Below are positions 7,586-60,057 of a stretch of DNA of 64,000 nt, piece by piece; the stretch's first letter is position 1; every line of letters starts with the position of its first letter. This stretch comes from Escherichia phage 55, in sequence record OQ599310. One strand, written 5' to 3'. Under the pieces are notes generated by a model. The model was not told where the DNA came from. It did not search any database and saw only the letters and a list, made by a program, of their open reading frames with translations. The translations under genes and the position numbers were made by a program.

Positions 7586-7919
7586 TCTCGATGATTTAAA
7601 TCTAGAAATCGTTGATGAATCCCCTTCTTCGGAAGGGGAAGACATTCGCAAAGAACGAGTGTTTAATGAATCTCTTAAAATTATCCGTTCAGCAATGGAA
7701 AATGTCATTCAAGAGATTCTGATTACACTTGAAGATGGTTCTCATCATATAGTCTATATTACAAAACTAGACTGGGTTGATGGTAAAATCGTAATGGACT
7801 TTGCAGTTCTTGACCAGGACAGAAAAGCAGAACTTGCACCGCATGTTGAAAAATGTGTTACAATGCAAGTACAACAAGCTTTTAATGAACGGGCCAAGAA
7901 AAAATTTAAATTCTTTTAA
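7578..7919 (+). CDS. 40: gp40 head vertex assembly chaperone
   Basis: 114-aa ORF starting at ATG overlapping uvsX stop (ATGAATAA); position between uvsX and 41 as in T4. Confidence 0.55.
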   Translation: MNNLDDLNLEIVDESPSSEGEDIRKERVFNESLKIIRSAMENVIQEILITLEDGSHHIVYITKLDWVDGKIVMDFAVLDQDRKAELAPHVEKCVTMQVQQAFNERAKKKFKFF

Positions 7920-35304: not shown

Positions 35305-35330
35305 GGGAGCCGAAGCTCCCTTTTGTGCAT
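35305..35330 (+). terminator. stem-loop GGGAGCCGAAGCTCCC followed by T-run
   Basis: hairpin then TTTTGTGCATTTTT. Confidence 0.55.
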
Positions 35331-38227: not shown

Positions 38228-38500
38228 ATGAATAAAGACATTGAAATCGTACGCGAAATTATTACTATTGCTTCTATTTTGATTAAATTCTCTAGGGAAG
38301 ATATTGTTGAAGACCGAGCAAGTTTTATCGGTTTCTTGAATGAGATTGGAATTAAAAAAGATGGTCGGCAGCTAAATCAGAATTCTTTTAGAAAACTAAT
38401 TACAAATTTAACTGCCGAAGAAAAGAAAACACTGATTAGTGAATTCAATGAAGGTTTTGAAAATATTTATCGTCATTTAGCGATGTATTCTAACAACTAA
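38228..38500 (+). CDS. asiA: AsiA anti-sigma-70 factor
   Basis: 90 aa; VREIIT.ASILIKFSREDIVE..A.FI.FLNEIG...NQNSFRK match T4 AsiA. Confidence 0.9.
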   Translation: MNKDIEIVREIITIASILIKFSREDIVEDRASFIGFLNEIGIKKDGRQLNQNSFRKLITNLTAEEKKTLISEFNEGFENIYRHLAMYSNN

Positions 38501-39160
38501 TTATTTAGCCCTTCCTAGTATTCGGACCGCTTGGTTGCATATAGCTGCTAAGCGATCTTCCTCAAGTATATTACTCCCCTTATACCAATACATCGTCACA
38601 GTTCCAGCGTAGATGTTATCCAAATTAAAGTATGGACAACTATACATATAAGAAAGTTCGGCAGTCTTAGATTTTGTAGGCAAAAATGCAAATTCTGATT
38701 TAGATGAGAAATGACGGCCACTTAAATGAATTATATATTCATTGGCCGTTTTATCCACTGGGAATCCGCCAAGGGACTTTTCAGAAATTGTGCTAGGTAG
38801 TTTGCCTTCATAAGCTATAAGGTCGACAAAATAATTTAAGTTTTTAGGTCTGAAAGAATACACAGCACTAAAATCTGCACCAGATGAGATATGAACTATT
38901 TGCAGTTGTTCTAGAGCCGCAGATTCAAAACGTAAAGCTCGTTCTTTTTGGATTATTTCAGTATAAGTATCATACTTAGCTCTTACATAATAATCCAGCA
39001 AAATACTTCCTTTGTACCATATTAGTGCCATTAGGAACAAAAGAATAATTACCGCTACTCGGGACATTAAAACCTTTCCAGTAGCGTTATCTTTGAAAAT
39101 ACGATCTAGCAACCCAAATAGAATATCACTAAGCGAAAATGATACTTTTGGTGTTGCCAT
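38501..39160 (-). CDS. t: holin T
   Basis: 219 aa; SDILFG.LDR.FKDNATGKVL.SRVAV, YMYSCPYFNLDNIYAGT.TMYWY match T4 holin. Confidence 0.9.
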   Translation of the reverse strand: MATPKVSFSLSDILFGLLDRIFKDNATGKVLMSRVAVIILLFLMALIWYKGSILLDYYVRAKYDTYTEIIQKERALRFESAALEQLQIVHISSGADFSAVYSFRPKNLNYFVDLIAYEGKLPSTISEKSLGGFPVDKTANEYIIHLSGRHFSSKSEFAFLPTKSKTAELSYMYSCPYFNLDNIYAGTVTMYWYKGSNILEEDRLAAICNQAVRILGRAK

Positions 39161-39169
39161 AATACCTCC

Positions 39170-39721
39170 TTACTTAAAGATATTTATAATCGCTTTGATA
39201 ATAGATTTGTTTTCAAGGTCAGGGAATTTAGGGAATTCGCCGCCAAGATGTTCATGTTTTTCTAAAAGGGCAAAGAATTTTTTGAGCTCTTTAAATTTTC
39301 GTTTTTCTTCTCTATTAGCAACCTCTGCGTCAATAAGAGAACTTAAAACACTGAATAATTTATAGAGTTCATGAATTTTCTTATCACGTTGAACTACGCG
39401 TTTATATGCTTCATCTTCCTTCCACCCGTCGTCGGTCCAAAGGTCAAATTCACCAGGTTCTTCTGTAGTAACATTTTGAAGAGCACCTGGAGTGTCAATA
39501 ACAATTTTTTGCTTATCATATGTCCATACTGTTTTTCCTCGATGGTCTTCAACATATACCCATTCTTGCTCGCGTTCGTCAAATATAACAGCATAGCCTT
39601 CTTTAGGGTCTAAAGGTTTTTTTGGTGTCGAATGAGCCGGAAATCCTACGCCTTTTAATGGTTTATAATTTTCTTCTTTGTAAAATTCTTTAGTGTCAAA
39701 ATAATAGTGATAGAGTTTCAT
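39170..39721 (-). CDS. 38: gp38 tail-fibre assembly chaperone / adhesin
   Basis: 183 aa; M..YHYYFDTKEFYKEENYKP...FFALLEKHEHLGGEFP match T4 gp38. Confidence 0.85.
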   Translation of the reverse strand: MKLYHYYFDTKEFYKEENYKPLKGVGFPAHSTPKKPLDPKEGYAVIFDEREQEWVYVEDHRGKTVWTYDKQKIVIDTPGALQNVTTEEPGEFDLWTDDGWKEDEAYKRVVQRDKKIHELYKLFSVLSSLIDAEVANREEKRKFKELKKFFALLEKHEHLGGEFPKFPDLENKSIIKAIINIFK

Positions 39722-39751
39722 ATTATAAAAAGGGACCGAAGCCCCTTCTCC
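39722..39751 (-). promoter_or_regulatory. hairpin between Shine-Dalgarno and start codon of gene 38 (split ribosome-binding site); may also terminate gene 37 transcripts
   Basis: minus strand reads GGAG-AA-GGGGCUUCGGUCCC-UUUUUAUAAU-AUG. Confidence 0.5.
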
Positions 39752-42700
39752 TTATGCTAAACGAACGATATAGTTAAAAGCAACGTTTTTAACTGTGTTT
39801 TCTGTATTTCCTGTGGCATTTACAGTTATTGTATGTCCATGGGAACCAATTGCAACAGTATGAGAATGAGCACCAATACCTACCGAATGGGTATGAGCAC
39901 CAATACCTACCGTATGAGCATGGTTACCCGTAGAGCTAGTAGTTCCTGACCAACTATGGGTGTGGGCACCGTCATTTGATGTTTTACCGACCTTAGTTGC
40001 TAAAGTCGAACCAGTGATACCTGAGTTAATTTTAGCATATGAGTTTGCACCTATCGTAGTAACCCCGTCTCTAAACAAACCGTCTGCCCATGCAGCAATG
40101 ACCTGTGGACCTGAACGCGCGTGTTGGTGAGCTCCTGCGGAACTAGTATTACCACTCACTGTATGGGTATGGTTACCAGTGGTATTACTGGTCTTAGTAC
40201 CATAATCAAATCTTGAAGTCGTTTTGCTACCGTAATCAAAACTAGAAGTGGTCTTAGTACCCAAATCTGTGCTTGATGCACTTGCACTATGGCTATGTGA
40301 CTTAACACCGTCTGCTTCTGTACTTAATACAGCGCGCCCAGATGGTTTACCCTTGATAGTTTGACCACGCATATCAGGCAGAGCGCCAGAAGGATACACC
40401 GCAGCTAACTTAGGATACAAGCCAGTATCAAATGTTTGGCCTTCCATTATGGCATAACCTTCAGGAGGTGTATCAGTAGGCCAAGGAATCGGAGCACCAA
40501 TTGGATAACTTGAGACAATATCAGTTTTAAGTGATTCAATTGTACTATTTAAGTTGGCAAAATTACCAGAACCACCAGTAATGTTACCGTCTGTACCTAA
40601 ATAAACTGAACCCCCAGCAGAAATGCGCTTAGGAGATATAAAATCACCAGAACGTGTAAATTCCCAGCCTAAATCTTTTATAGTTGCGCCTGTTGAACTT
40701 CCGTCTCCACCTTCATGATAATGAACTCTGAAGTTACCGCCATTTATTAAAGTACCTAAAGAATAACAGCTATTTCCTTGAACATAACGTTGTTTTAAAA
40801 TAGGAACGTAAGTACTTGTATCTGTGCGATTAATATTCATATAGAACGGAGCACGAACGTTTTCATTATTTTGTGAAGCAAAAGACCCTGCACCAGCCGG
40901 GCGAACGGTGTCAGTACATTCAGCATCAATATAAGCTGCTTGTCCTACCTGCATACGGTAATTAGGAGAAATACGACTATGACTAGTAACAACAACAAGT
41001 TTGTTATCATTGTCCACAGTAATCATATTACCGCCAGCGCCATCATCGCCTAACGTGACAGAATGGCGCATTTGTACCATACCATTATTAAGACTAATAC
41101 TTAATGGACGGAGATTGCTTATTCCACCTGATTCTCCAGCATCTTTAGGAGTCGGGATAATATGCAATGCCGCCTCTGAACGACGGAAAATAGCACCATA
41201 TTCAGCATTCCAAATTCTTAACGCATCTGCAGTTCCGCCAAACTTAGCCTGGCCATTTACTGTCATGCCATTATTAACACTCAAAGAAGATTCAGTTGTA
41301 ATAGAACCAGAAGCAACAATACTACCTGAAGTTAATAAACCGCCATTAACTCGGAATTGAATAGGTCCGACAGTAGAACCTACACCAGGAGCAACTCGTT
41401 GAGAATAAAAATGGTAACCTTGTCCATCTGATACTTCAAAAACTGTTTCACGGGAATGATCGCCAGATGCGTTAAAGGCATTACCCCATGCTTTAACAGT
41501 TACATAACTCTTATTCTGGCCTGCTCGAGTGCCGCCTTCCCAAAGGATTTGTTTGGTGCCATCAATCGTGGTAGTTGCTGAAAAAGTCAAACCTGCTGTT
41601 GAGTTATTAGCTGCTAAATATACGCCGTTATATATTGAAAGCTGCTTAACAGATGTAATACCGCCATCAGCATAAAACCTTACATTATTAGCGCCTGTTA
41701 CTAGTTTAAGAACACCGGGGTTAATTTCCATACCTTCTTGGGTATTAATATTCATTTGGCCTTTACCGCGGAAATAGTGCGACATTTTTCCACCAGAGTT
41801 ATAGCCAATATGCGTCCGACCGTCCCCTGCGTTATTCACATCCGCTTGAGTTTGGACTGATAAAAATGCAGCATTAGTACCAGGCATAATCCATGTAGTG
41901 CCTTGGTCTTCTGAACGTCCAAATAACGCTTTACGAGTACTACGGAAACTGTCAGGAGTAATAGAAGCAACAGAATAACCACCGCCAACTAAATCATAAA
42001 CTCCTTGTTTAATATATTTCAGACCTGTTACAGTGTCACCGAGAACAAGATACTTATCGCCCATTACACCGACGTTACCATAATCGCTAGACGGGAAATC
42101 TGTAGTGAATGTACCTAATGCAAGGCTATTACGGCCAGCCATTCGACCATCATTACGAATACCATACTGTTTTGACTGTGGAGTATTACCTGTCCACCAA
42201 GACATTTCATCAGCTTGGCCTAATTGAGCAGTACAAAGCTCATGCCACATAGTGCCACCGGATTTGGCACGAACTCTACGAAGATAGTTTACACCATTCG
42301 TTTCACCGGTGCCTGGGTATACATAGTTAACTAATGAATCCGTATCATATACACCAAAGGCTTTTCCACCGTGAATAACTGTATCAACTGCAATGCGTTT
42401 AGTTACTAACGAATCTGATGCTAAAATACGGTTAGCCTGAAATTCGCCTCCATTTATAGAACGGAAATAGAATTCACTATTAGTAGTGCTTCCTGTTCCT
42501 TGTCTAACCCTAAGGCGTATTTCACCATCAGTTGTAGTTTGAGGACGAGCATATATAACGCCTCGTTCAGTGCCATCGGCATTTTCAAACCATAAATGGG
42601 CATTTGCAGTATCGTTTGTTGCTCTTGTATAAAATGAACCCTGTGTAGATCTGAAAACTTTTGCAGTTACGCCATCAGTAGAACCAATTGGTCCGTTTAC

Positions 42701-42943
42701 AGTCATTCCACCTGTTTGTACATAATCGCCATTTAATCTCAAAAGTCCGTTAATAGTAACGTTGCCGTCAACTTGCCCGCCCTTAGCAAAGCCTAGGCTA
42801 ATAATATTACCGAGGTCATCTTTAGTAAAAAGAGTTCGATCCTTTAAGTTTATCGCTAATTCGCCTTCGGCTAATTGTGCTGCAGTAGGATTAACTCCTG
42901 CCACTTTGCTTCTTTTAAATTGTATCTGTTTTAATGTAGCCAT
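39752..42943 (-). CDS. 37: gp37 long tail fibre distal subunit
   Basis: 1063 aa; C-terminal His-x-His repeat region ([24 protein letters not shown]) typical of the gp37 tip. Confidence 0.9.
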
Positions 42944-42951
42944 AAGTCCTC

Positions 42952-43617
42952 TTAATAATAGCCGAAATCTTGAACAGAATCTTTAATTACAATCTGGTCG
43001 AAACGAGGAACATGATTAGCCTCAGACGCCGGATTCTGTGAGAAAAAGTTTGGTGCTGTTAAAGTACCAGTCATGGTATCGCCTTTACGCAATACACGGG
43101 AATTTGCGTTATCCGTAACAATATTTATTCGTCCATCAACATAGTCCTTTCTAGTAAGGTCATTCGCTGCTATAGGAGCAGCTGCATCACTTCTTACTTG
43201 ACCTGCCGCAGACACAACACCTTTTGTATTAATATCACCATTACGTGCATTAATTACAACAGTTCGGGCTGCTGAACCTTGCGATGATTTAAAACCAATA
43301 CCATTCCATGAAACAATATCGATATTTGCTACAGCAAAAGTAGCATTATCACCGTTACCTGGATAAATACCGCACGGGTTTGTGTTGTTTACAGCATACG
43401 GGACTTGAACGCCGCCGTTAAATGTTACCTTTGATGCATACGTACCACCATTAGCTTTAGAAACGAAATCGTTATCAGCCGCTTGTGGTTTATTATATTC
43501 TGAATAGAGTTTAAACGTTTTATACAGGACGTCATCACCTGCTGGCATTAAAGGGAAATTACCTTGATGCCATATAACAGCACCGCCAGTTGTACTACCA
43601 GCTTTTAAATCGGCCAT
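42952..43617 (-). CDS. 36: gp36 long tail fibre hinge connector
   Basis: 221 aa, between 35 and 37. Confidence 0.8.
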
Positions 43618-43641
43618 AGTTGTCTCCTTATATGTATACCA

Positions 43642-43649
43642 TATTTATA
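43642..43649 (-). promoter_or_regulatory. late promoter TATAAATA upstream of gene 36
   Basis: plus strand TATTTATA equals TATAAATA on minus. Confidence 0.5.
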
Positions 43650-43674
43650 CAAAAATGGGAGACCGAAGTCTCCC
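43650..43674 (-). terminator. terminator hairpin after gene 35
   Basis: GGGAGACTTCGGTCTCCC on minus strand followed by T-run. Confidence 0.55.
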
Positions 43675-43679
43675 TAAAT

Positions 43680-44807
43680 TTATTCTGATGCTTCTTTAAA
43701 TTCTTGTCCAAATACCTTACCAGTATTAGTTGAAGATTGAGTAGGTAATGTCATTATGTCTGGAGCACTTAAAGATTCTGAAACATAATTTACACGAATA
43801 CCATTTATACCAAACTCAGCAGGTTTTGAAACGCTTCCATTGCATGATACTTCAGTGAATATAACGTTTCTTAATCCACCTTGCCCGACTGGAGCTGTAC
43901 GATAACAATAAATCGTGAACCCGTCAGCACCAGCAGGAATTTCTATGTAGTCTTCATATATCTTCCATTCACCTGCAGCCCCATCAAAGTTTGTATCCTT
44001 AAATGAAATAGGTGAAGTAGAAGGAGATTTAAAGAAACGAATAGAAAGTCGTGTCGTCCCTTGTGCTAACAAATCGGCATCAGCCATTAGTTGGAATTTC
44101 ATATAAAGGAAATCTCCAGGCTTCAATTTATACCCAGCGAGAGGTGTAATAACGGACGTTGTAGGCATCCTTTTAATTTCGTTATTAGTACCTCCAATGG
44201 CAGATAAAAATGTGTCTGACGATTCATATGTACGTCTAGGGAAGCCGGTCGCACCAATATCATCGATCGTGTCGTACACAACATCAAGTGGTGTACTATA
44301 GTCGGTTGAAGTTTTCTTATTACTATACTTAATATGTTCTAGCGCTATAGCATTCTTACCAGAAATATAAAATGCAGAATAAGAAATGTCCACTATATTT
44401 AAAACTTGTTGAGCTAATGGAATAGCAGAACTCCCAGCTTTAGTAAACCATGCAAGAACTTCTGGTGGAAAGTTTGTTTTAGCGTTAGTAACAAGAGCAA
44501 ATATAAAATTTGAAGCATATGTGTCCATGAAAGTAACAAATGCACTTGACGTGGCGTCGTTTTCAGTAGAGAAATTATATGACTTAGATTCAACTACTGC
44601 ACCTGTTGTAGGATTTATTACACGAACGTTTAATCCAACGGAAAAAACCTGGGACCCAAGTGGATTATCTTGGAACTTAATATAAGTAGGAGATGTTGAT
44701 AGCGGACAAGAGCCCGCTATGCTTAATTTAAATCGTACTGAATTGCTTTCCGATAAAAATGGCGTTTGGACGTATCCTTGTCCAAACTTAGCCATAAATT
44801 TTTCCAT
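43680..44807 (-). CDS. 35: gp35 long tail fibre hinge
   Basis: 375 aa, between 34 and 36. Confidence 0.8.
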   Translation of the reverse strand: MEKFMAKFGQGYVQTPFLSESNSVRFKLSIAGSCPLSTSPTYIKFQDNPLGSQVFSVGLNVRVINPTTGAVVESKSYNFSTENDATSSAFVTFMDTYASNFIFALVTNAKTNFPPEVLAWFTKAGSSAIPLAQQVLNIVDISYSAFYISGKNAIALEHIKYSNKKTSTDYSTPLDVVYDTIDDIGATGFPRRTYESSDTFLSAIGGTNNEIKRMPTTSVITPLAGYKLKPGDFLYMKFQLMADADLLAQGTTRLSIRFFKSPSTSPISFKDTNFDGAAGEWKIYEDYIEIPAGADGFTIYCYRTAPVGQGGLRNVIFTEVSCNGSVSKPAEFGINGIRVNYVSESLSAPDIMTLPTQSSTNTGKVFGQEFKEASE

Positions 44808-44815
44808 AATACCTC

Positions 44816-47800
44816 TTATTCAATCCACTCAAATTTAACAGATTTATTCACAGGGTCTGGAATAATGCGGACATTACCAATCCTTAAGAAATCCCTTATT
44901 GTCAAGTTTCCGATTGTTGCATTATCAGAAGGTAAAGCACCAATATCAGAAGGTTGAGGAGGGTTTCCACCATCAAATACCTGAACAAAACTTGACCAAG
45001 AATTTTTAGTTTTCTGCCATGTACGAGTCCAACGGGTTGTACGTGCTTCCGGTGTCGTTGGATAAGTAATCCAATCTTGGTAAAGAGAATCAAGCGTATT
45101 ACCAAATTGAGTCAAAGTACCAGGAGATTTAACTTCTTCACCACGTTCTAAATATGGAAGCCCAGTCACTTCATTAGTTTTTTCAACCATTTTAAAATAA
45201 CCCGGGAACTGGTTATAAGTGGCTGAATCGTTAATATCGATTGACCAGAATCCTACATTATCAGATGTTGGCGCACGGGTATATAAATCGGATGTTTTAG
45301 TACCCTGAGAACGAATTCTCGAGTTAACAGTCAAACCGCCAGAATTTATAGTAGCACCATTGGCAATGATTAAGCCTTCACCAATTGTAATCTGACCGGA
45401 TTTGTTATTAATTGATAATGGACGTAATCCATTAAATCCACCAGTCTGATCACCAGATGCAGTAAGCATAAAATATGTGCTGCCGCCATCATTGCGAATA
45501 AAGAATCCGTAATCACCACTAATTACTCTGAAAGCATTTGCAGACTTGCTAATGAATTCACCATTGGCTGTAACTGAACGACCAAATGTTGCAACGCCAT
45601 TCGCATTTAACGTGCCTGAAGCGTTAACATTTATTGGCATCACAGTACCATTGATACTAAACGTTATATTCCCAGCTTTATTACGTTGAGAATAAAAGTG
45701 ATTAGATGTTTCATCGCCGACTTCAAATACAGTAGAACGCGTTGTATCTGAACCACCACCAAATTCATTTCCCCAAACTCTGATAGTCATCGTTTGAGCA
45801 GGATTTGTTCCAGTTTGAGGTCCTTTCTCAAAAATCAGACGAGTTGCCGTTCCAGTATTAGAAATAGTTAATGTACTATTTGCCGAAACTGAACCACCAA
45901 ACGTAGCAGTACTAGATGATACAAGAGGGGCACTCAGATTCGTTTGTTGGGTTAAGGTTAGTGAACCATTAACCGTCTGTGCAATGTCCCTACGAATGAA
46001 CTGAGATGAATCTAGACCATCTAATAAATTACTATCTACGGCTTTAGCTTTCAATGGCAAATAGTTAGCAAGTACACGGTTTAATTCATATGGAGATATA
46101 GCATAGCTATTTTTTTCATATGATTCTAAAGGTTGTGTTGAACCAACTGTATCATTACCAACGAATGTAATAGAACCAGATGAAGTTTTAACGAATCCAC
46201 GAATCGCCGTAGTAGCAGCCCATGTTGGTTCAGACTGGACAATCCATTTTAAATTCTTAGGAGATACAGCAGTATTAGCAGAAGTTCCTGTTACAGTTTC
46301 AGCCCGAGTAGCAACCTTAATTACGCCTTCAGACGTTTCAGTGGACTTAGTCCCTAAAAGCTTTTTAGGAGTAATAAGAACATCATCTAAAGTTCCTGCA
46401 TTAGATTCTGCCTGGGTCGCTACGCGAAGCGTACCACGTTGTGTTTCATTTGCTTTAGAAATATCAAGAGTATAATGGTTCCACAAGGTTCCTTCTTCAA
46501 TAAGTCCGGAATCAGAATTAACACTGGTACGGTCAGAAGAATCAAAATGAGTTTTAATTTTCAGTGGAGTTGAGATACGAGTATCGTCAGTTCCAGTATC
46601 AAATTCAACTTGCGTAGCAAGTTCGGCTATGCCGGATAATCCTTCCGTAGCTTTCCTATCATTTAATGTCTTAGGCGTTACTGCACGTGTATAATCAGTC
46701 CCAGCATTAGTTTCTGCTTGCGTAGCAATTTCAATTAAACCAATACGTCCATCAGTAGAAGTTTTCTTATGTAGTGTTTCAGGAGTTACTACAGCGTGAG
46801 AATAACCTGCTTGTGATTGACCAGCAATTACTTCACTATCAACAGCTAAAATTACTGCACCTTGTTGAGCATAAGTTGCTTTATATTGGTCAAGGGCTTT
46901 AGGAGAAATAGTTAACGTGGTTGTGTCTTTATTATAAACATTAGTGCCTGCAGCTCCACGAGTCGCGGCAGGTGTAGCAGAAGTAGTTGATACATATTTA
47001 ACTATACCAGATAGTGTTTCAGAACCCTGACGTGCCTGTAATTTCTTAGGTGTAATAATCGTTGTGTCATCAAGACCAGCATCTGTTTCAACCTGAGTAG
47101 CAATTTCAGCAAGACCGCGACGAGTTTCAGTTGCTGTACGCTCATTTAGTTTTTTAGGCGTAACAATAGTATCATCTACAAATGTTGCTGTGGAATTCTG
47201 GTTAACTTGTGCTGTTGTAGCAATTTTAGCGATACCACGTCGAGCTTCAGTTGCTGTACGATTTGCCAATGTTTCAGGAGTAATAGCCACTTCTTTAGCT
47301 GGAGTATTCTCTAAATCAACATTTGCTTGCGCTTGAGTAGCAAGAGCAATAACACCTAAACGAGCTCGTGTAGCATCAGTTCCAGCATCAACACGTTCTA
47401 CCGTAGGGACATTCTGTTGCACAACCCAATAACGTGTACCAGCAACGGTGTCTTCGATATACGCTAATTCTAATACAGGAACATATGAAGTAGTGCCATT
47501 GAATTCTAGTTCAGTAACAGAGACCCATTGAGCATCAGGTGGATATTCAGAACGTTTAGGGAACTGAAGCAATGCAACAGTGGAAGCAATTGTATCACCT
47601 TCGGCAGCTTTAATTTTTACTGTTTGGCCTTTACGCATGTAGTTCATTGAAATTTTAACAGTGTCACCACTCAAAATTCCGGTAGGCAGCGTAAGATTAA
47701 TAGTTCCGGTTGTAGCGTTATTTGTGCCAAAGATAAGAACTTCTTCATTTGGACGAATATTTGAATCCGCACGGATAATACGAAGACGCGATTTCTGGTC

Positions 47801-58441: not shown

Positions 58442-59620
58442 ATGAGTACAGTTTTTAATACCCAAAAAGTTGATGTTTTGAATGAACCAATGTTCTTTGG
58501 TTCCGGTCTTGGCCTTGCGCGTTACGATATTCAACGCCATAAAGTTTTTGAAGAGCTTATTGAAAAGCAATTGTCGTTTTTTTGGCGCCCTGAAGAGGTA
58601 AACTTGATGTTGGACTCTGCGCAGTTCAATAAGCTTCCACAGTTCCAACAGAACATCTTTACGAACAACCTTAAGTATCAATCATTATTGGATTCTATCC
58701 AAGGCAGGGCACCATCTGCGGTACTTATGGCATTGCTTTCCGACCCTTCATTAGATACATGGGTTGCTACATGGACATTCAGTGAAACCATTCACTCTCG
58801 TTCATATACTCATATCATGCGAAATCTTTATACTGATCCATCGAAGGTATTTGATGAGATTGTATTAGATGAAGCAATTATGAAACGTGCGGAATCAATC
58901 GGCAAATATTATGATGATGTTCTAGTTAAAACACGTGAATGGGAAAATGCTAAAGAAATTTTTAAATGTTTTTCCGAAAATGAATATGATTTGGATGCAT
59001 ATTCAAATAGTCTTATGCATGTGGAAGAATGTAAACGTGCATTAATGAAGTCTCTTTATCTCTGCTTACACGTTATTAACGCCTTAGAAGCTATTCGTTT
59101 TTACGTATCATTTGCATGTACTTTCAACTTCCATAAGAACATGGAAATCATGGAAGGTAATGCAAAGATTATGAAGTTTATCGCTCGTGACGAACAACTC
59201 CACCTTAAAGGCACTCAGTACATTATTCGACAGCTCCAACTTGGTGTTGATGGGGATGAATGGGTTCAAATTGCTAAAGAGTGTGAGCAAGAAGCAGTAG
59301 ATATCTTTATGGAAGTAAATAGTCAAGAGAAGGAATGGGCTGCACACCTCTTTAAAGACGGTACATGTCCAGGTATCAATACGCAGAGTATGTGTGCTTT
59401 TGTTGATTACTTGACTGTGTCTCGTATGAAACAGTGCGGTTTGCCATGCCCAATCACTGATGCTCCGACCAAGCATCCGTATCCTTGGATTCGTGAATAT
59501 CTGAACTCTGATTTAGTTCAAGCAGCTCCTCAGGAAGTTGAAATCAGTTCTTATCTTGTCGCACAAATTGATAATGATGTAGACCAAAATGTAATCAATT
59601 CATACAAAAAATATTTCTAA
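58442..59620 (+). CDS. nrdB: ribonucleotide reductase class Ia beta subunit, uninterrupted
   Basis: 392 aa ferritin-like diiron protein (SETIHSRSYTHI); continuous ORF. Confidence 0.95.
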   Translation: MSTVFNTQKVDVLNEPMFFGSGLGLARYDIQRHKVFEELIEKQLSFFWRPEEVNLMLDSAQFNKLPQFQQNIFTNNLKYQSLLDSIQGRAPSAVLMALLSDPSLDTWVATWTFSETIHSRSYTHIMRNLYTDPSKVFDEIVLDEAIMKRAESIGKYYDDVLVKTREWENAKEIFKCFSENEYDLDAYSNSLMHVEECKRALMKSLYLCLHVINALEAIRFYVSFACTFNFHKNMEIMEGNAKIMKFIARDEQLHLKGTQYIIRQLQLGVDGDEWVQIAKECEQEAVDIFMEVNSQEKEWAAHLFKDGTCPGINTQSMCAFVDYLTVSRMKQCGLPCPITDAPTKHPYPWIREYLNSDLVQAAPQEVEISSYLVAQIDNDVDQNVINSYKKYF

Positions 59621-59624
59621 GGAC

Positions 59625-59646
59625 GGGACTTCGGTCCCACTTTATT
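59625..59646 (+). terminator. stem-loop GGGACTTCGGTCCC after nrdB
   Basis: hairpin with UUCG loop, weak T tail. Confidence 0.45.
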
Positions 59647-60057
59647 ATGAAAGATATTGCCGCCGAATATTCCTTTATTAAATATACAGAATTGGAGCTA
59701 TTAGAAGATGCAACAATTAAAACAGTTGATGTCCCTAATAAGAAAAATGTCATATATGCTATTGCTATAGACGATGAACTTGTGTATATTGGTAAAACCA
59801 AGAATTTAAAGAAACGCATTAACTATTATCGAACAGCCATAAATCGAAAAGACCAGACTTCAGATTCAAGAAAATCACTTATGATTTTGGATGCCTTAAT
59901 GCAAGGCAAAAAGGTTGAATTCTGGGCCCGCCAATGTTTTGACCTTTCAGTCACCAACGAACTTGGTTCAATGACCATCGCAACAATGGACCTTGAAGAA
60001 CCGCTTTTTATCAAAAAGTTCAACCCGCCTTGGAATATCCAACATAAGAAAAAGTAG
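59647..60057 (+). CDS. denA: endonuclease II (GIY-YIG family)
   Basis: 136 aa; position after nrdB; VIYAIAIDDELVYIGKT GIY-YIG-like. Confidence 0.75.
   Translation: MKDIAAEYSFIKYTELELLEDATIKTVDVPNKKNVIYAIAIDDELVYIGKTKNLKKRINYYRTAINRKDQTSDSRKSLMILDALMQGKKVEFWARQCFDLSVTNELGSMTIATMDLEEPLFIKKFNPPWNIQHKKK

Follow-up and report, generated by a model that had tools for sequence, protein, structure and literature searches.

The window analysed here, the whole 64,000-nucleotide stretch of Escherichia phage 55 (OQ599310), belongs to a Tequatrovirus and is 100% identical to phage Aplg8 in the region where gene 37 meets gene 38. The genes are ordered as g34-35-36-37-38-t-asiA. Gene 37, encoding the 1063-aa long tail fibre distal subunit, occupies 39752..42943 on the minus strand according to the ORF list and the annotation of matching phage records, and ends in a TAA stop codon (UAA in the RNA; 39754-39752). 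Gene 38 lies downstream on the same strand (39170..39721) and encodes a 183-aa tail fibre assembly chaperone of the T4 type, identified by 66.5% identity to T4 gp38 and by a match to Pfam Caudo_TAP at the curated threshold. It is followed by gene t, whose product was assigned as a holin by Pfam Phage_holin_T (E 1e-90). A pattern search for the late-promoter consensus TATAAATA on the minus strand found it only before genes 34, 36, and t, in the window as in T4. The copy upstream of gene 36 (43642..43649), placed as in the T4 layout, is the nearest upstream consensus late promoter able to supply gene 38 mRNA, while the copy serving gene t sits inside the 3' end of gene 38 (39181..39188). A separate late promoter for gene 38 was considered and rejected, as no TATAAATA occurs from 43649 to gene 38; within gene 37, sites with one mismatch were fewer than expected by chance and none was near gene 38.

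Between the two genes the minus strand reads GGAG-AA-GGGGCUUCGGUCCC-UUUUUAUAAU-AUG after the gene 37 stop, an arrangement that an earlier sequence-only reading had described with exact sequence and coordinates. GGAG (39751-39748) and two adenines (39747-39746) precede a core hairpin at 39732..39745, GGGGC-UUCG-GUCCC, with its 5' arm at 39745-39741, its loop at 39740-39737, and its 3' arm at 39736-39732. The 10-nt A/U-rich tail UUUUUAUAAU (39722..39731) then leads from the hairpin core to the AUG of gene 38 (39721-39719). The stretch complementary to 16S rRNA is the 7-mer UAAGGAG (39748..39754) rather than GGAG alone, so that the gene 37 stop codon is part of this Shine-Dalgarno sequence (SD). 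With the 16S rRNA 3' end, UAAGGAG makes a 7-bp duplex of -9.3 kcal/mol, as strong as that of the conventional SD of gene 36 in the window. The distance from GGAG to AUG is 26 nt at gene 38, and the spacing at the gene 36 site is 6 nt. We searched for an alternative in-frame start with a conventional SD and found none: codon 1 is the only in-frame ATG, GTG, or TTG in the gene 38 ORF, no in-frame start codon lies between the in-frame gene 37 TAA (33 nt upstream) and the AUG, and the 10-nt UUUUUAUAAU directly ahead of the AUG has no purine run resembling an SD. A TAA in frame with the gene 38 ATG is present both in the window (33 nt) and in T4 (30 nt). A read-through fusion of gp37 to gp38 was rejected, since the frame is not conserved, with a stop-to-start spacer of 28 nt in LF82-41 and 26 nt in TuIa.

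Folding predicted a stable structure at the junction. The core stem comprises five pairs (G-C, G-C, G-C, G-U, and C-G) closed by a C(UUCG)G tetraloop, and in minimum free energy structures it can be extended through A-U and G-U pairs to at most 10 bp (39750..39727). The 22-nt hairpin folded at -11.4 kcal/mol (z -2.74), a stability reached by 0 of 200 shuffled sequences, and the 39-nt segment from stop to start at -14.0 kcal/mol in the gene-sense RNA (z -2.81), with 3 of 200 shuffles equally stable. The instability that would have spoken against the earlier proposal was thus not found. Since the complementary strand of the 39-nt segment reached only -5.8 kcal/mol (z -0.56), the junction hairpin is predicted to form in gene-sense RNA only. 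The core alone accounts for -6.9 kcal/mol, and its pair probabilities did not fall below 0.996 even when the SD was kept open. In the extended helix, GAGAA is paired with UUUUU and its three bottom pairs involve the final three SD nucleotides, which had an unpaired probability of 0.01–0.08 in free RNA by thermodynamic folding (more than 90% paired); freeing UAAGGAG from structure costs 3.7 kcal/mol. With the SD held open a 7-bp helix remained (pair probability 0.73–0.998), ending 8 nt before the AUG. Folding is thus predicted to reduce the GGAG-to-AUG spacing to about 6–8 nt, and the sequence-only reading, which held that the SD is too far from the AUG unless the hairpin folds, is borne out by the modelled change from 26 nt to about 8 nt after the 7-bp helix. 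An Rfam scan of 38400-44900 at E values up to 10 placed no family over the junction element.

The element is conserved among relatives. As IMG/VR yielded just 2 gp38 loci and metagenomes 3, junction diversity was sampled from 16 GenBank phage records. The hairpin was present in every relative examined, spanning the genera Tequatrovirus, Mosigvirus, and Gaprivervirus, in a common layout of TAAGGAG, 1–2 nt, a 14-nt hairpin, 8–10 A/U-rich nt, and ATG. TAAGGAG is invariant and the ATG AAA start is kept throughout. A raw spacing of 22–26 nt in these relatives becomes 6–7 nt when folded, counted as in the T4 literature with the last G of GGAG included in the helix. Pairs were counted in an ungapped, hand-trimmed alignment, MAFFT having mis-gapped the LF82-41 hairpin. 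The fourth stem pair varies, being GC in 5 cases, AU in 3, CG in 1, and GU in 1, the last being the form in the window. Altogether, 98.6% of stem cells were paired, and the observed covariation was reached in 4 of 500 shuffles, a signal that comes from a single stem position in closely related (DNA identity 82–100%) and probably recombining sequences. The helix thus appears to have been kept by compensatory change, for which one variable pair gives modest support. In the window type, an additional A on the 5' side is matched by an additional U on the 3' side; within the window's subgroup, 9 phage records have the exact G-U form and 40 the A-U form. The U run varies, reading UUCU in T4-type phages, UUU in LF82-41, and UUUU in SP18 and TH54.

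At the same junction T4 carries TAAGGAGA-GGGGCUUCGGCCCC-UUCUAAAU-AUG, and the gene 38 element of the window is the ortholog of the T4 gene 38 split ribosome-binding site (RBS), already known rather than new. The T4 SD and AUG are described as parted by a stable hairpin that joins them (PMC3014915; PMC7297116). Its structure is reported to cut the spacing from 22 nt to 5 nt, with destabilising mutations lowering initiation (PMC3014915), while the other source states only that a positive role of the gene 38 structure 'was suggested' (PMC7297116). The two phages share the gene order (gene 37 stop, SD, hairpin, gene 38 AUG, then t), the TAAGGAG SD, the C(UUCG)G tetraloop hairpin, the A/U-rich tail, and a gene 38 lacking a separate consensus late promoter. 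They differ in the stem, which is GGGGC/GCCCC in T4 and GGGGC/GUCCC in the window, with a G-U wobble. Because one additional A precedes the stem in the window and the tail is longer there (UUUUUAUAAU versus UUCUAAAU), its GGAG-to-AUG distance is 26 nt compared to 23 nt in T4 by our count (22 nt in the literature); its additional A-U pair is predicted to hold the folded spacing within about 1 nt of that of T4. This synteny with T4 g37-g38-t, the shared element, and the two papers uphold the earlier comparison of the site with the split RBS of T4 gene 38.

A second split RBS is known from T4. PMC7297116 cites reports of split RBSs for T4 genes 38 (Gold 1988, also cited in PMC3014915) and 25 (Nivinskas 1999). 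PMC3014915 describes, at the T4 gene 26-25 junction, a stem-loop between SD and AUG that shortens the spacing from 27 to 11 nt, and summarises the work of Nivinskas et al. 1999 and of Malys and Nivinskas 2009, in which the gene 25 site was found to be kept in close T-even phages and was studied by mutagenesis and DMS probing. The gene 25 site differs from the element described here in that it lies at another junction, has another hairpin sequence, and is absent from the window, and its experiments concern gene 25. The mutational evidence that can be traced with certainty is that for T4 gene 25, not gene 38.

The window contains 11 C(UUCG)G hairpins whose stems have 5 bp or more, among them that of gene 38. 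Such hairpins in the intercistronic regions of T4 were reportedly treated by Tuerk et al. in PNAS in 1988. The others that precede an ORF (at least 50 codons, within 60 nt) lie 21–55 nt upstream of the start, enough for a separate SD to fit in between; several of them have long U runs. Only two, those of gene 38 and denA, have a start codon at most 10 nt away and the SD on the opposite side of the hairpin. The gene 38 architecture of SD, hairpin, and AUG recurs at the nrdB-denA junction (59618-59649, plus strand), where covariation is stronger.

We consider it probable, at roughly 0.72, that the gene 38 element acts as a split (non-contiguous) RBS orthologous to that of T4. In the proposed mechanism, gene 38 would be transcribed within the late 36-37-38 message, and its only SD, the UAAGGAG that shares the gene 37 stop and stands 26 nt before the AUG, would be too distant for normal initiation. 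The C(UUCG)G hairpin with two flanking A-U pairs would form a 7-bp helix that loops out 18 nt, and a 30S subunit paired with UAAGGAG would then find about 8 unpaired nt (UUUAUAAU) from the helix to the AUG, a folded spacing comparable with the 6 nt of the gene 36 site. The three weak pairs between the SD and the U run would be displaced by the much stronger SD:anti-SD duplex. From the T4 literature and this geometry, we infer that the ribosome accommodates the helix and that the helix promotes initiation instead of reducing it. In the window variant, the hairpin and its U5 run may also terminate a fraction of transcripts after gene 37.

In a first rival account, the hairpin would serve chiefly as a leaky intrinsic terminator (attenuator) and would protect the 3' end of the abundant 36-37 message, and the SD and AUG simply had to flank it. 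Partial termination would then give a low ratio of gp38 to gp37, in keeping with a chaperone on one side and a structural protein on the other, and such a role could coexist with a split RBS. Like intrinsic terminators, the element has a GC-rich stem-loop directly followed by a U run (U5) and preceded by a complementary A-rich stretch. Its d'Aubenton-Carafa-type score is 20.7 (tail score 4.95), mid-range for the 11 C(UUCG)G hairpins of the window (-22 to 56); 12.7 was obtained for the hairpin that follows gene 35 and 11.0 for the T4 gene 38 hairpin, the U5 run making the window variant more terminator-like than that of T4. The hairpin is moreover annotated as a terminator in the GenBank records of phages G53, NBG1, and KAW3E185. 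On the other hand, the core stem has just 5 bp (-6.9 kcal/mol), and a simple terminator scan did not report the hairpin because its stem extends into the U run. Across orthologs the U run changes (UUCU in T4-type phages, UUU in LF82-41) whereas the SD, hairpin, and spacing are invariant, and the window's denA hairpin, its analogue, lacks a U run and scores -19.6. As gene 38 lacks its own consensus late promoter, transcription must pass the hairpin and any termination has to be leaky. A search of the available literature found no T4 3'-end mapping study. We regard attenuation as the main function as unlikely, though as the strongest of the alternatives. The suggestion in the sequence-only reading that the same structure could serve as the gene 37 terminator remains plausible and partly supported: the score and the three annotations speak for it, while the need for read-through and the unconserved U run speak against it.

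The remaining explanations differ in what the hairpin would do to translation. Gene 38 could be translated mainly by ribosomes that end at the gene 37 UAA, are held there by the SD, and move 30 nt to the AUG, leaving the hairpin incidental or only a block to independent entry. The stop codon does lie within UAAGGAG, and the hairpin starts 6 nt past the stop, so that a terminating ribosome, given its established footprint, must unfold the 5' arm; by analogy, the nrdB-denA junction of one phage lineage lacks the hairpin and has an ATGA stop-start overlap, a layout classically linked to coupling. A gap of 30 nt is long for coupling, however, and coupling alone leaves a compensated, conserved hairpin and a constant folded spacing unexplained, while in the T4 literature the site counts as a split RBS in its own right (PMC3014915; PMC7297116). 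We hold this account to be improbable. Slightly more doubtful still is a negative element, in which the extended helix would hide the GAG of the SD and keep chaperone synthesis low. The last three SD nucleotides are indeed mostly paired in free RNA (unpaired probability 0.01–0.08), which could equally damp initiation, and in T4, in LF82-41, and at denA the SD is likewise predicted to take part in the lower stem. Yet the pairs that would hide the SD are G-U and A-U only, and their opening costs 3.7 kcal/mol against the -9.3 kcal/mol of the SD:anti-SD duplex. Without the hairpin, the SD would stand 26 nt from the AUG, a non-functional spacing, so the net effect of folding is expected to be positive, and destabilising mutations are reported to lower initiation (PMC3014915). 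That the hairpin arose by chance or is a DNA-level feature without an RNA function we judge very improbable. Short GC-rich palindromes do arise by chance, and CTTCGG is common in the genome (28 occurrences versus about 16 expected), but the predicted stability is strand-specific, the G-U pair being a C-A mismatch on the other strand; none of 200 shuffles folded equally well, and the hairpin is kept across three genera with G-C, G-U, A-U, or C-G at one pair.

As a separate candidate, the junction was considered as a target of the RegB endoribonuclease, taken as an 11-nt single-stranded site with GGA followed by A-rich sequence in an early transcript. It was rejected: the GGAG here is followed by AA and a G-rich hairpin arm and does not form a single-stranded, A-rich site, and the message is a late one. 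Secondary structure is reported to protect from RegB, and all late transcripts to be resistant (PMC1702504; PMC3014915).

Read as a split RBS, the element would represent a classic T4 translational device conserved in a related phage, with a variant that combines a wobble pair and an extra pair, and it should be useful for start-codon annotation and for engineering tail-fibre/chaperone cassettes. Relative to the older literature, the new observations are the series of G-C, G-U, A-U, and C-G at one stem pair and the constancy of the folded spacing despite a raw distance of 22–26 nt. The occurrence of the same design before denA and other phage genes suggests that tetraloop-hairpin split RBSs are used by phages in general and are not just two peculiarities of T4, and the denA site, a by-product of this analysis, is a more interesting lead than gene 38 itself. 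In the searchable literature we found no description of a denA split RBS.

It is conceivable, at somewhat less than even odds, that the gene 38 element is one copy of a recurrent and possibly portable intercistronic module. Such a module may consist of a stop codon with UAAGGAG, 1–2 nt, a GGGNC-tetraloop-GN'CCC hairpin, 7–10 A/U-rich nt, and AUG. If so, it could combine attenuation with read-through, protection of the upstream 3' end, and fixed, moderate translation of a low-demand gene such as a chaperone or nuclease. In other viral contigs, an adjacent AAGGAG made a start codon 4–13 nt after the hairpin about 7-fold likelier, a signal seen only by comparison with a set selected for AAGGAG; among unselected GGGGCUUCGGCCCC hairpins of viral contigs, with a strict SD, there was no significant association (3 of 14 versus 12 of 108 near a start, p 0.38). 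AAGGAG-hairpin-AUG was also found ahead of about a dozen unrelated gene families in these other viral contigs, and the same module precedes denA after nrdB throughout Tevenvirinae. The LF82-41 gene 38 junction and the EnA02 denA junction are identical over 24 nt, TAAGGAGAGGGCCTTCGGGCCCTT.

The element between genes 37 and 38 is supported as the known T4 gene 38 split ribosome-binding site (RBS) at an orthologous locus. On the minus strand, the gene 37 ORF (1063 aa, 42943..39752) ends in TAA (39754-39752), followed directly by GGAG (39751-39748) and AA, the hairpin GGGGC-UUCG-GUCCC (39745-39732), UUUUUAUAAU (39731-39722) and the ATG (39721-39719) that opens a 183-aa ORF (39721..39170); the junction as transcribed in the sequence-only reading matched the window exactly. 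The 501 bp around the site were 100% identical to Enterobacteria phage Aplg8 (Tequatrovirus), and ~200 T4-like phage records matched this region. The gene order 34-35-36-37-38-t-asiA is that of T4, the 183-aa protein shares 66.5% identity with T4 gp38 and reached the Pfam Caudo_TAP threshold, and the ORF after it is the T holin. Immediately 5' of the gene 38 AUG, this variant carries a perfect sigma-70 -10 hexamer, TATAAT (39722-39727, minus strand), where T4 has CTAAAT; it is probably incidental, since a transcript initiated there would begin within gene 38.

In T4, the corresponding place reads TAAGGAGA-GGGGCUUCGGCCCC-UUCUAAAU-AUG. A review describes how intervening RNA structure brings the long SD-AUG spacing of T4 genes 38 and 25 to a functional distance, from 22 to 5 nt and from 27 to 11 nt, respectively, and reports that destabilising mutations reduce initiation (PMC3014915). 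A second paper calls such sites non-contiguous or split, credits the gene 38 case to Gold 1988 and states that a positive effect of the gene 38 structure 'was suggested' (PMC7297116). The T4 junction and these descriptions therefore bear out the split-RBS interpretation of the sequence-only reading, and the feature was already known.

RNA folding confirmed that the hairpin is stable. The 22-nt hairpin was predicted at -11.4 kcal/mol (z -2.74), with none of 200 shuffles as good, and the 39-nt stop-to-start RNA in gene sense at -14.0 kcal/mol (z -2.81). The complementary strand has a C-A mismatch in place of the G-U pair and for this reason folded at only -5.8 kcal/mol (z -0.56), so the structure belongs to the gene-sense RNA. 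The core stem of 5 bp is closed by a C(UUCG)G tetraloop, a motif of extra stability, and can be extended to 10 bp by A-U and G-U pairs of GAGAA with UUUUU. No Rfam family was found for the element. The window has eleven C(UUCG)G hairpins whose stems reach 5 bp or more, at 7620, 9375, 15524, 24941, 26822, 31436, 52702 and 59625 on the plus strand and at 35321, 39750 and 43674 on the minus strand; several of these, with their long U runs, are classic terminators. CTTCGG itself was observed 28 times against ~16 expected.

The spacing of the signals fits initiation across the folded hairpin. The actual SD, the 7-mer UAAGGAG, takes in the stop codon of gene 37; its duplex with the 16S 3' end (-9.3 kcal/mol) equals that of the gene 36 SD in the window, a conventional UAAGGAG + 6 nt + AUG. 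In the free RNA, the final three SD nucleotides are predicted to pair with the U run (unpaired probability <0.1), and opening UAAGGAG is predicted to cost only 3.7 kcal/mol. As had been proposed, the SD is too distant from the AUG unless the hairpin folds: the spacing is 26 nt unfolded, and when the SD is kept open in the fold, 7 bp of helix remain (pair probabilities 0.73-0.998) and 8 nt stay unpaired between helix and AUG. Codon 1 is the sole in-frame ATG, GTG or TTG of the entire ORF, the in-frame gene 37 stop lies 33 nt 5' of the AUG with no start codon in between, and no purine run was found in the 10 nt 5' of the AUG, so there is no alternative in-frame start with a conventional SD. The gene 35-36 junction (43617-43680, minus strand) offers an internal contrast as a terminator-promoter-RBS cassette, in which the stop codon is followed by a 7-bp C(UUCG)G hairpin (43674-43657) with AUUUUUG, the late promoter TATAAATA (43649-43642) and a conventional UAAGGAG, a 6-nt spacer and ATG (43617).

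We compared junctions from T4, 16 further GenBank phage records, IMG/VR and metagenome contigs. All share TAAGGAG, 1-2 nt, a 14-nt hairpin, 8-10 A/U-rich nt and ATG AAA; raw GGAG-to-AUG spacing was 22-26 nt, and folded spacing 6-7 nt in all relatives when counted as in the T4 literature, where the helix includes the last G of GGAG. The fourth stem pair is G-C in T4 and most T4-type sequences, G-U in the window, Aplg8 and G53, A-U in NBG1, moskry, SP18 and one metagenome contig, and C-G in Mosigvirus LF82-41. Across ten distinct sequences, 98.6% of cells were paired and slid registers scored far lower; the observed covariation, which is confined to a single variable pair among close relatives that recombine, was attained in just 4 of 500 column shuffles. 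In the window type, an additional A 5' of the stem is matched by an additional U 3' of it, which lengthens the helix by one pair and so absorbs a 3-nt-longer spacer. Within this subgroup the window is a minority wobble variant (exact G-U form in 9 phage records, A-U form in 40). Phage TuIa (X55190) has GGGC-UUCA-GCCC with 4 bp, in a 1990 Sanger sequence in which a compression error is possible, and in phage P896 the loop is UUAG; UUCG is thus preferred, not obligatory. Salmonella phage Lv5cm (MZ150757, 224-301) carries a 77-bp tandem duplication of the hairpin and the first 18 gene 38 codons: the first copy has SD, hairpin and ATG yet stops after 18 codons, and the full-length copy follows a hairpin without SD. 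The duplication may be an artefact of assembly; otherwise it is a natural reinitiation test.

The hairpin had also been suggested to terminate gene 37. On the minus strand, the late-promoter consensus occurs only before gene 34 (48729), gene 36 (43649) and t (39188), the same layout as in T4; one-mismatch sites in gene 37 were no more frequent than chance, and none lies near gene 38. Since gene 38 has no consensus late promoter of its own, its transcription has to pass through the hairpin, and efficient termination there is ruled out. Leaky termination in this variant is possible: the hairpin with its U5 run has a d'Aubenton-Carafa-type score of 20.7, mid-range among the eleven C(UUCG)G hairpins and above that downstream of gene 35 (12.7), and it carries a terminator annotation in three GenBank records. 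A conserved terminator is harder to reconcile with a U run that becomes UUCU in T4-type sequences and UUU in LF82-41, a core stem of just -6.9 kcal/mol and a simple terminator scan that made no call here; the literature searched yielded no T4 transcript 3'-end data. We read the split RBS as the conserved function, with partial termination a plausible added role in this variant.

Gene 38 translation could also be coupled to termination on gene 37, whose stop codon lies inside the SD and whose terminating ribosome has to open the hairpin's 5' arm. A purely negative role for the structure is unlikely, because the lower stem is weak and the unfolded spacing is 26 nt. RegB cleavage of the site was considered and rejected, as was a gp37-gp38 read-through fusion, the reading frame differing among relatives.

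Though of low interest in itself, the gene 38 finding has a twin at denA and a wider recurrence worth following up. Scanning the window for SD, hairpin and start codon gave two intercistronic cases only, gene 38 and the nrdB-denA junction (59618-59649, plus strand), which shares the architecture: TAA(59618-59620)GGAC-GGGACUUCGGUCCC(59625-59638)-ACUUUAUU-ATG(59647), preceding a 136-aa GIY-YIG protein. In T4 this junction reads TAAGGAGU-GGGCCGCAAGGCCC-AUUUUAUU-AUG; its stem differs, and its loop is of the GNRA type. At least five genus-level Tevenvirinae groups (Tequatrovirus, Dhakavirus, Moonvirus, Karamvirus and Klebsiella phages) retain the denA hairpin, with UUCG, GCAA or GUAA loops; it shows compensatory changes at two pairs, and 0 of 500 shuffles reached its covariation. 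In the window it has no U run and a terminator-type score of -19.6. We found no description of a denA split RBS in the searchable literature. In one lineage (IMGVR_UViG_2974786931_000001) the junction has no hairpin, and the stop of nrdB and the start of denA overlap as ATGA, a classic coupling arrangement in place of the split RBS. In phage VR5 (NC_028881, 165), denA is annotated from an in-frame ATG further upstream that arises within SD-AAUG-GGGC, and the annotation thus places the hairpin in coding sequence; translation more likely begins at the conserved ATG AAA, 24 nt downstream. Gene callers can be misled by split RBSs.

Phages may make wide use of split RBSs built on tetraloop hairpins. 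In IMG/VR, a start codon, counted only if its ORF had at least 60 codons, lay 4-13 nt after the hairpin in 16 of 33 distinct AAGGAG-N-GGGNCUUCGGNCCC contexts (GGGNC-UUCG-GNCCC directly after AAGGAG), compared with 15 of 122 unselected GGGGCUUCGGCCCC hairpins (odds ratio 6.7, p 2e-5, uncorrected for relatedness). The 16 contexts represent 12 different N-termini, mostly not T4-like, and in some phages the gene 38 and denA junctions are identical over 24 nt.
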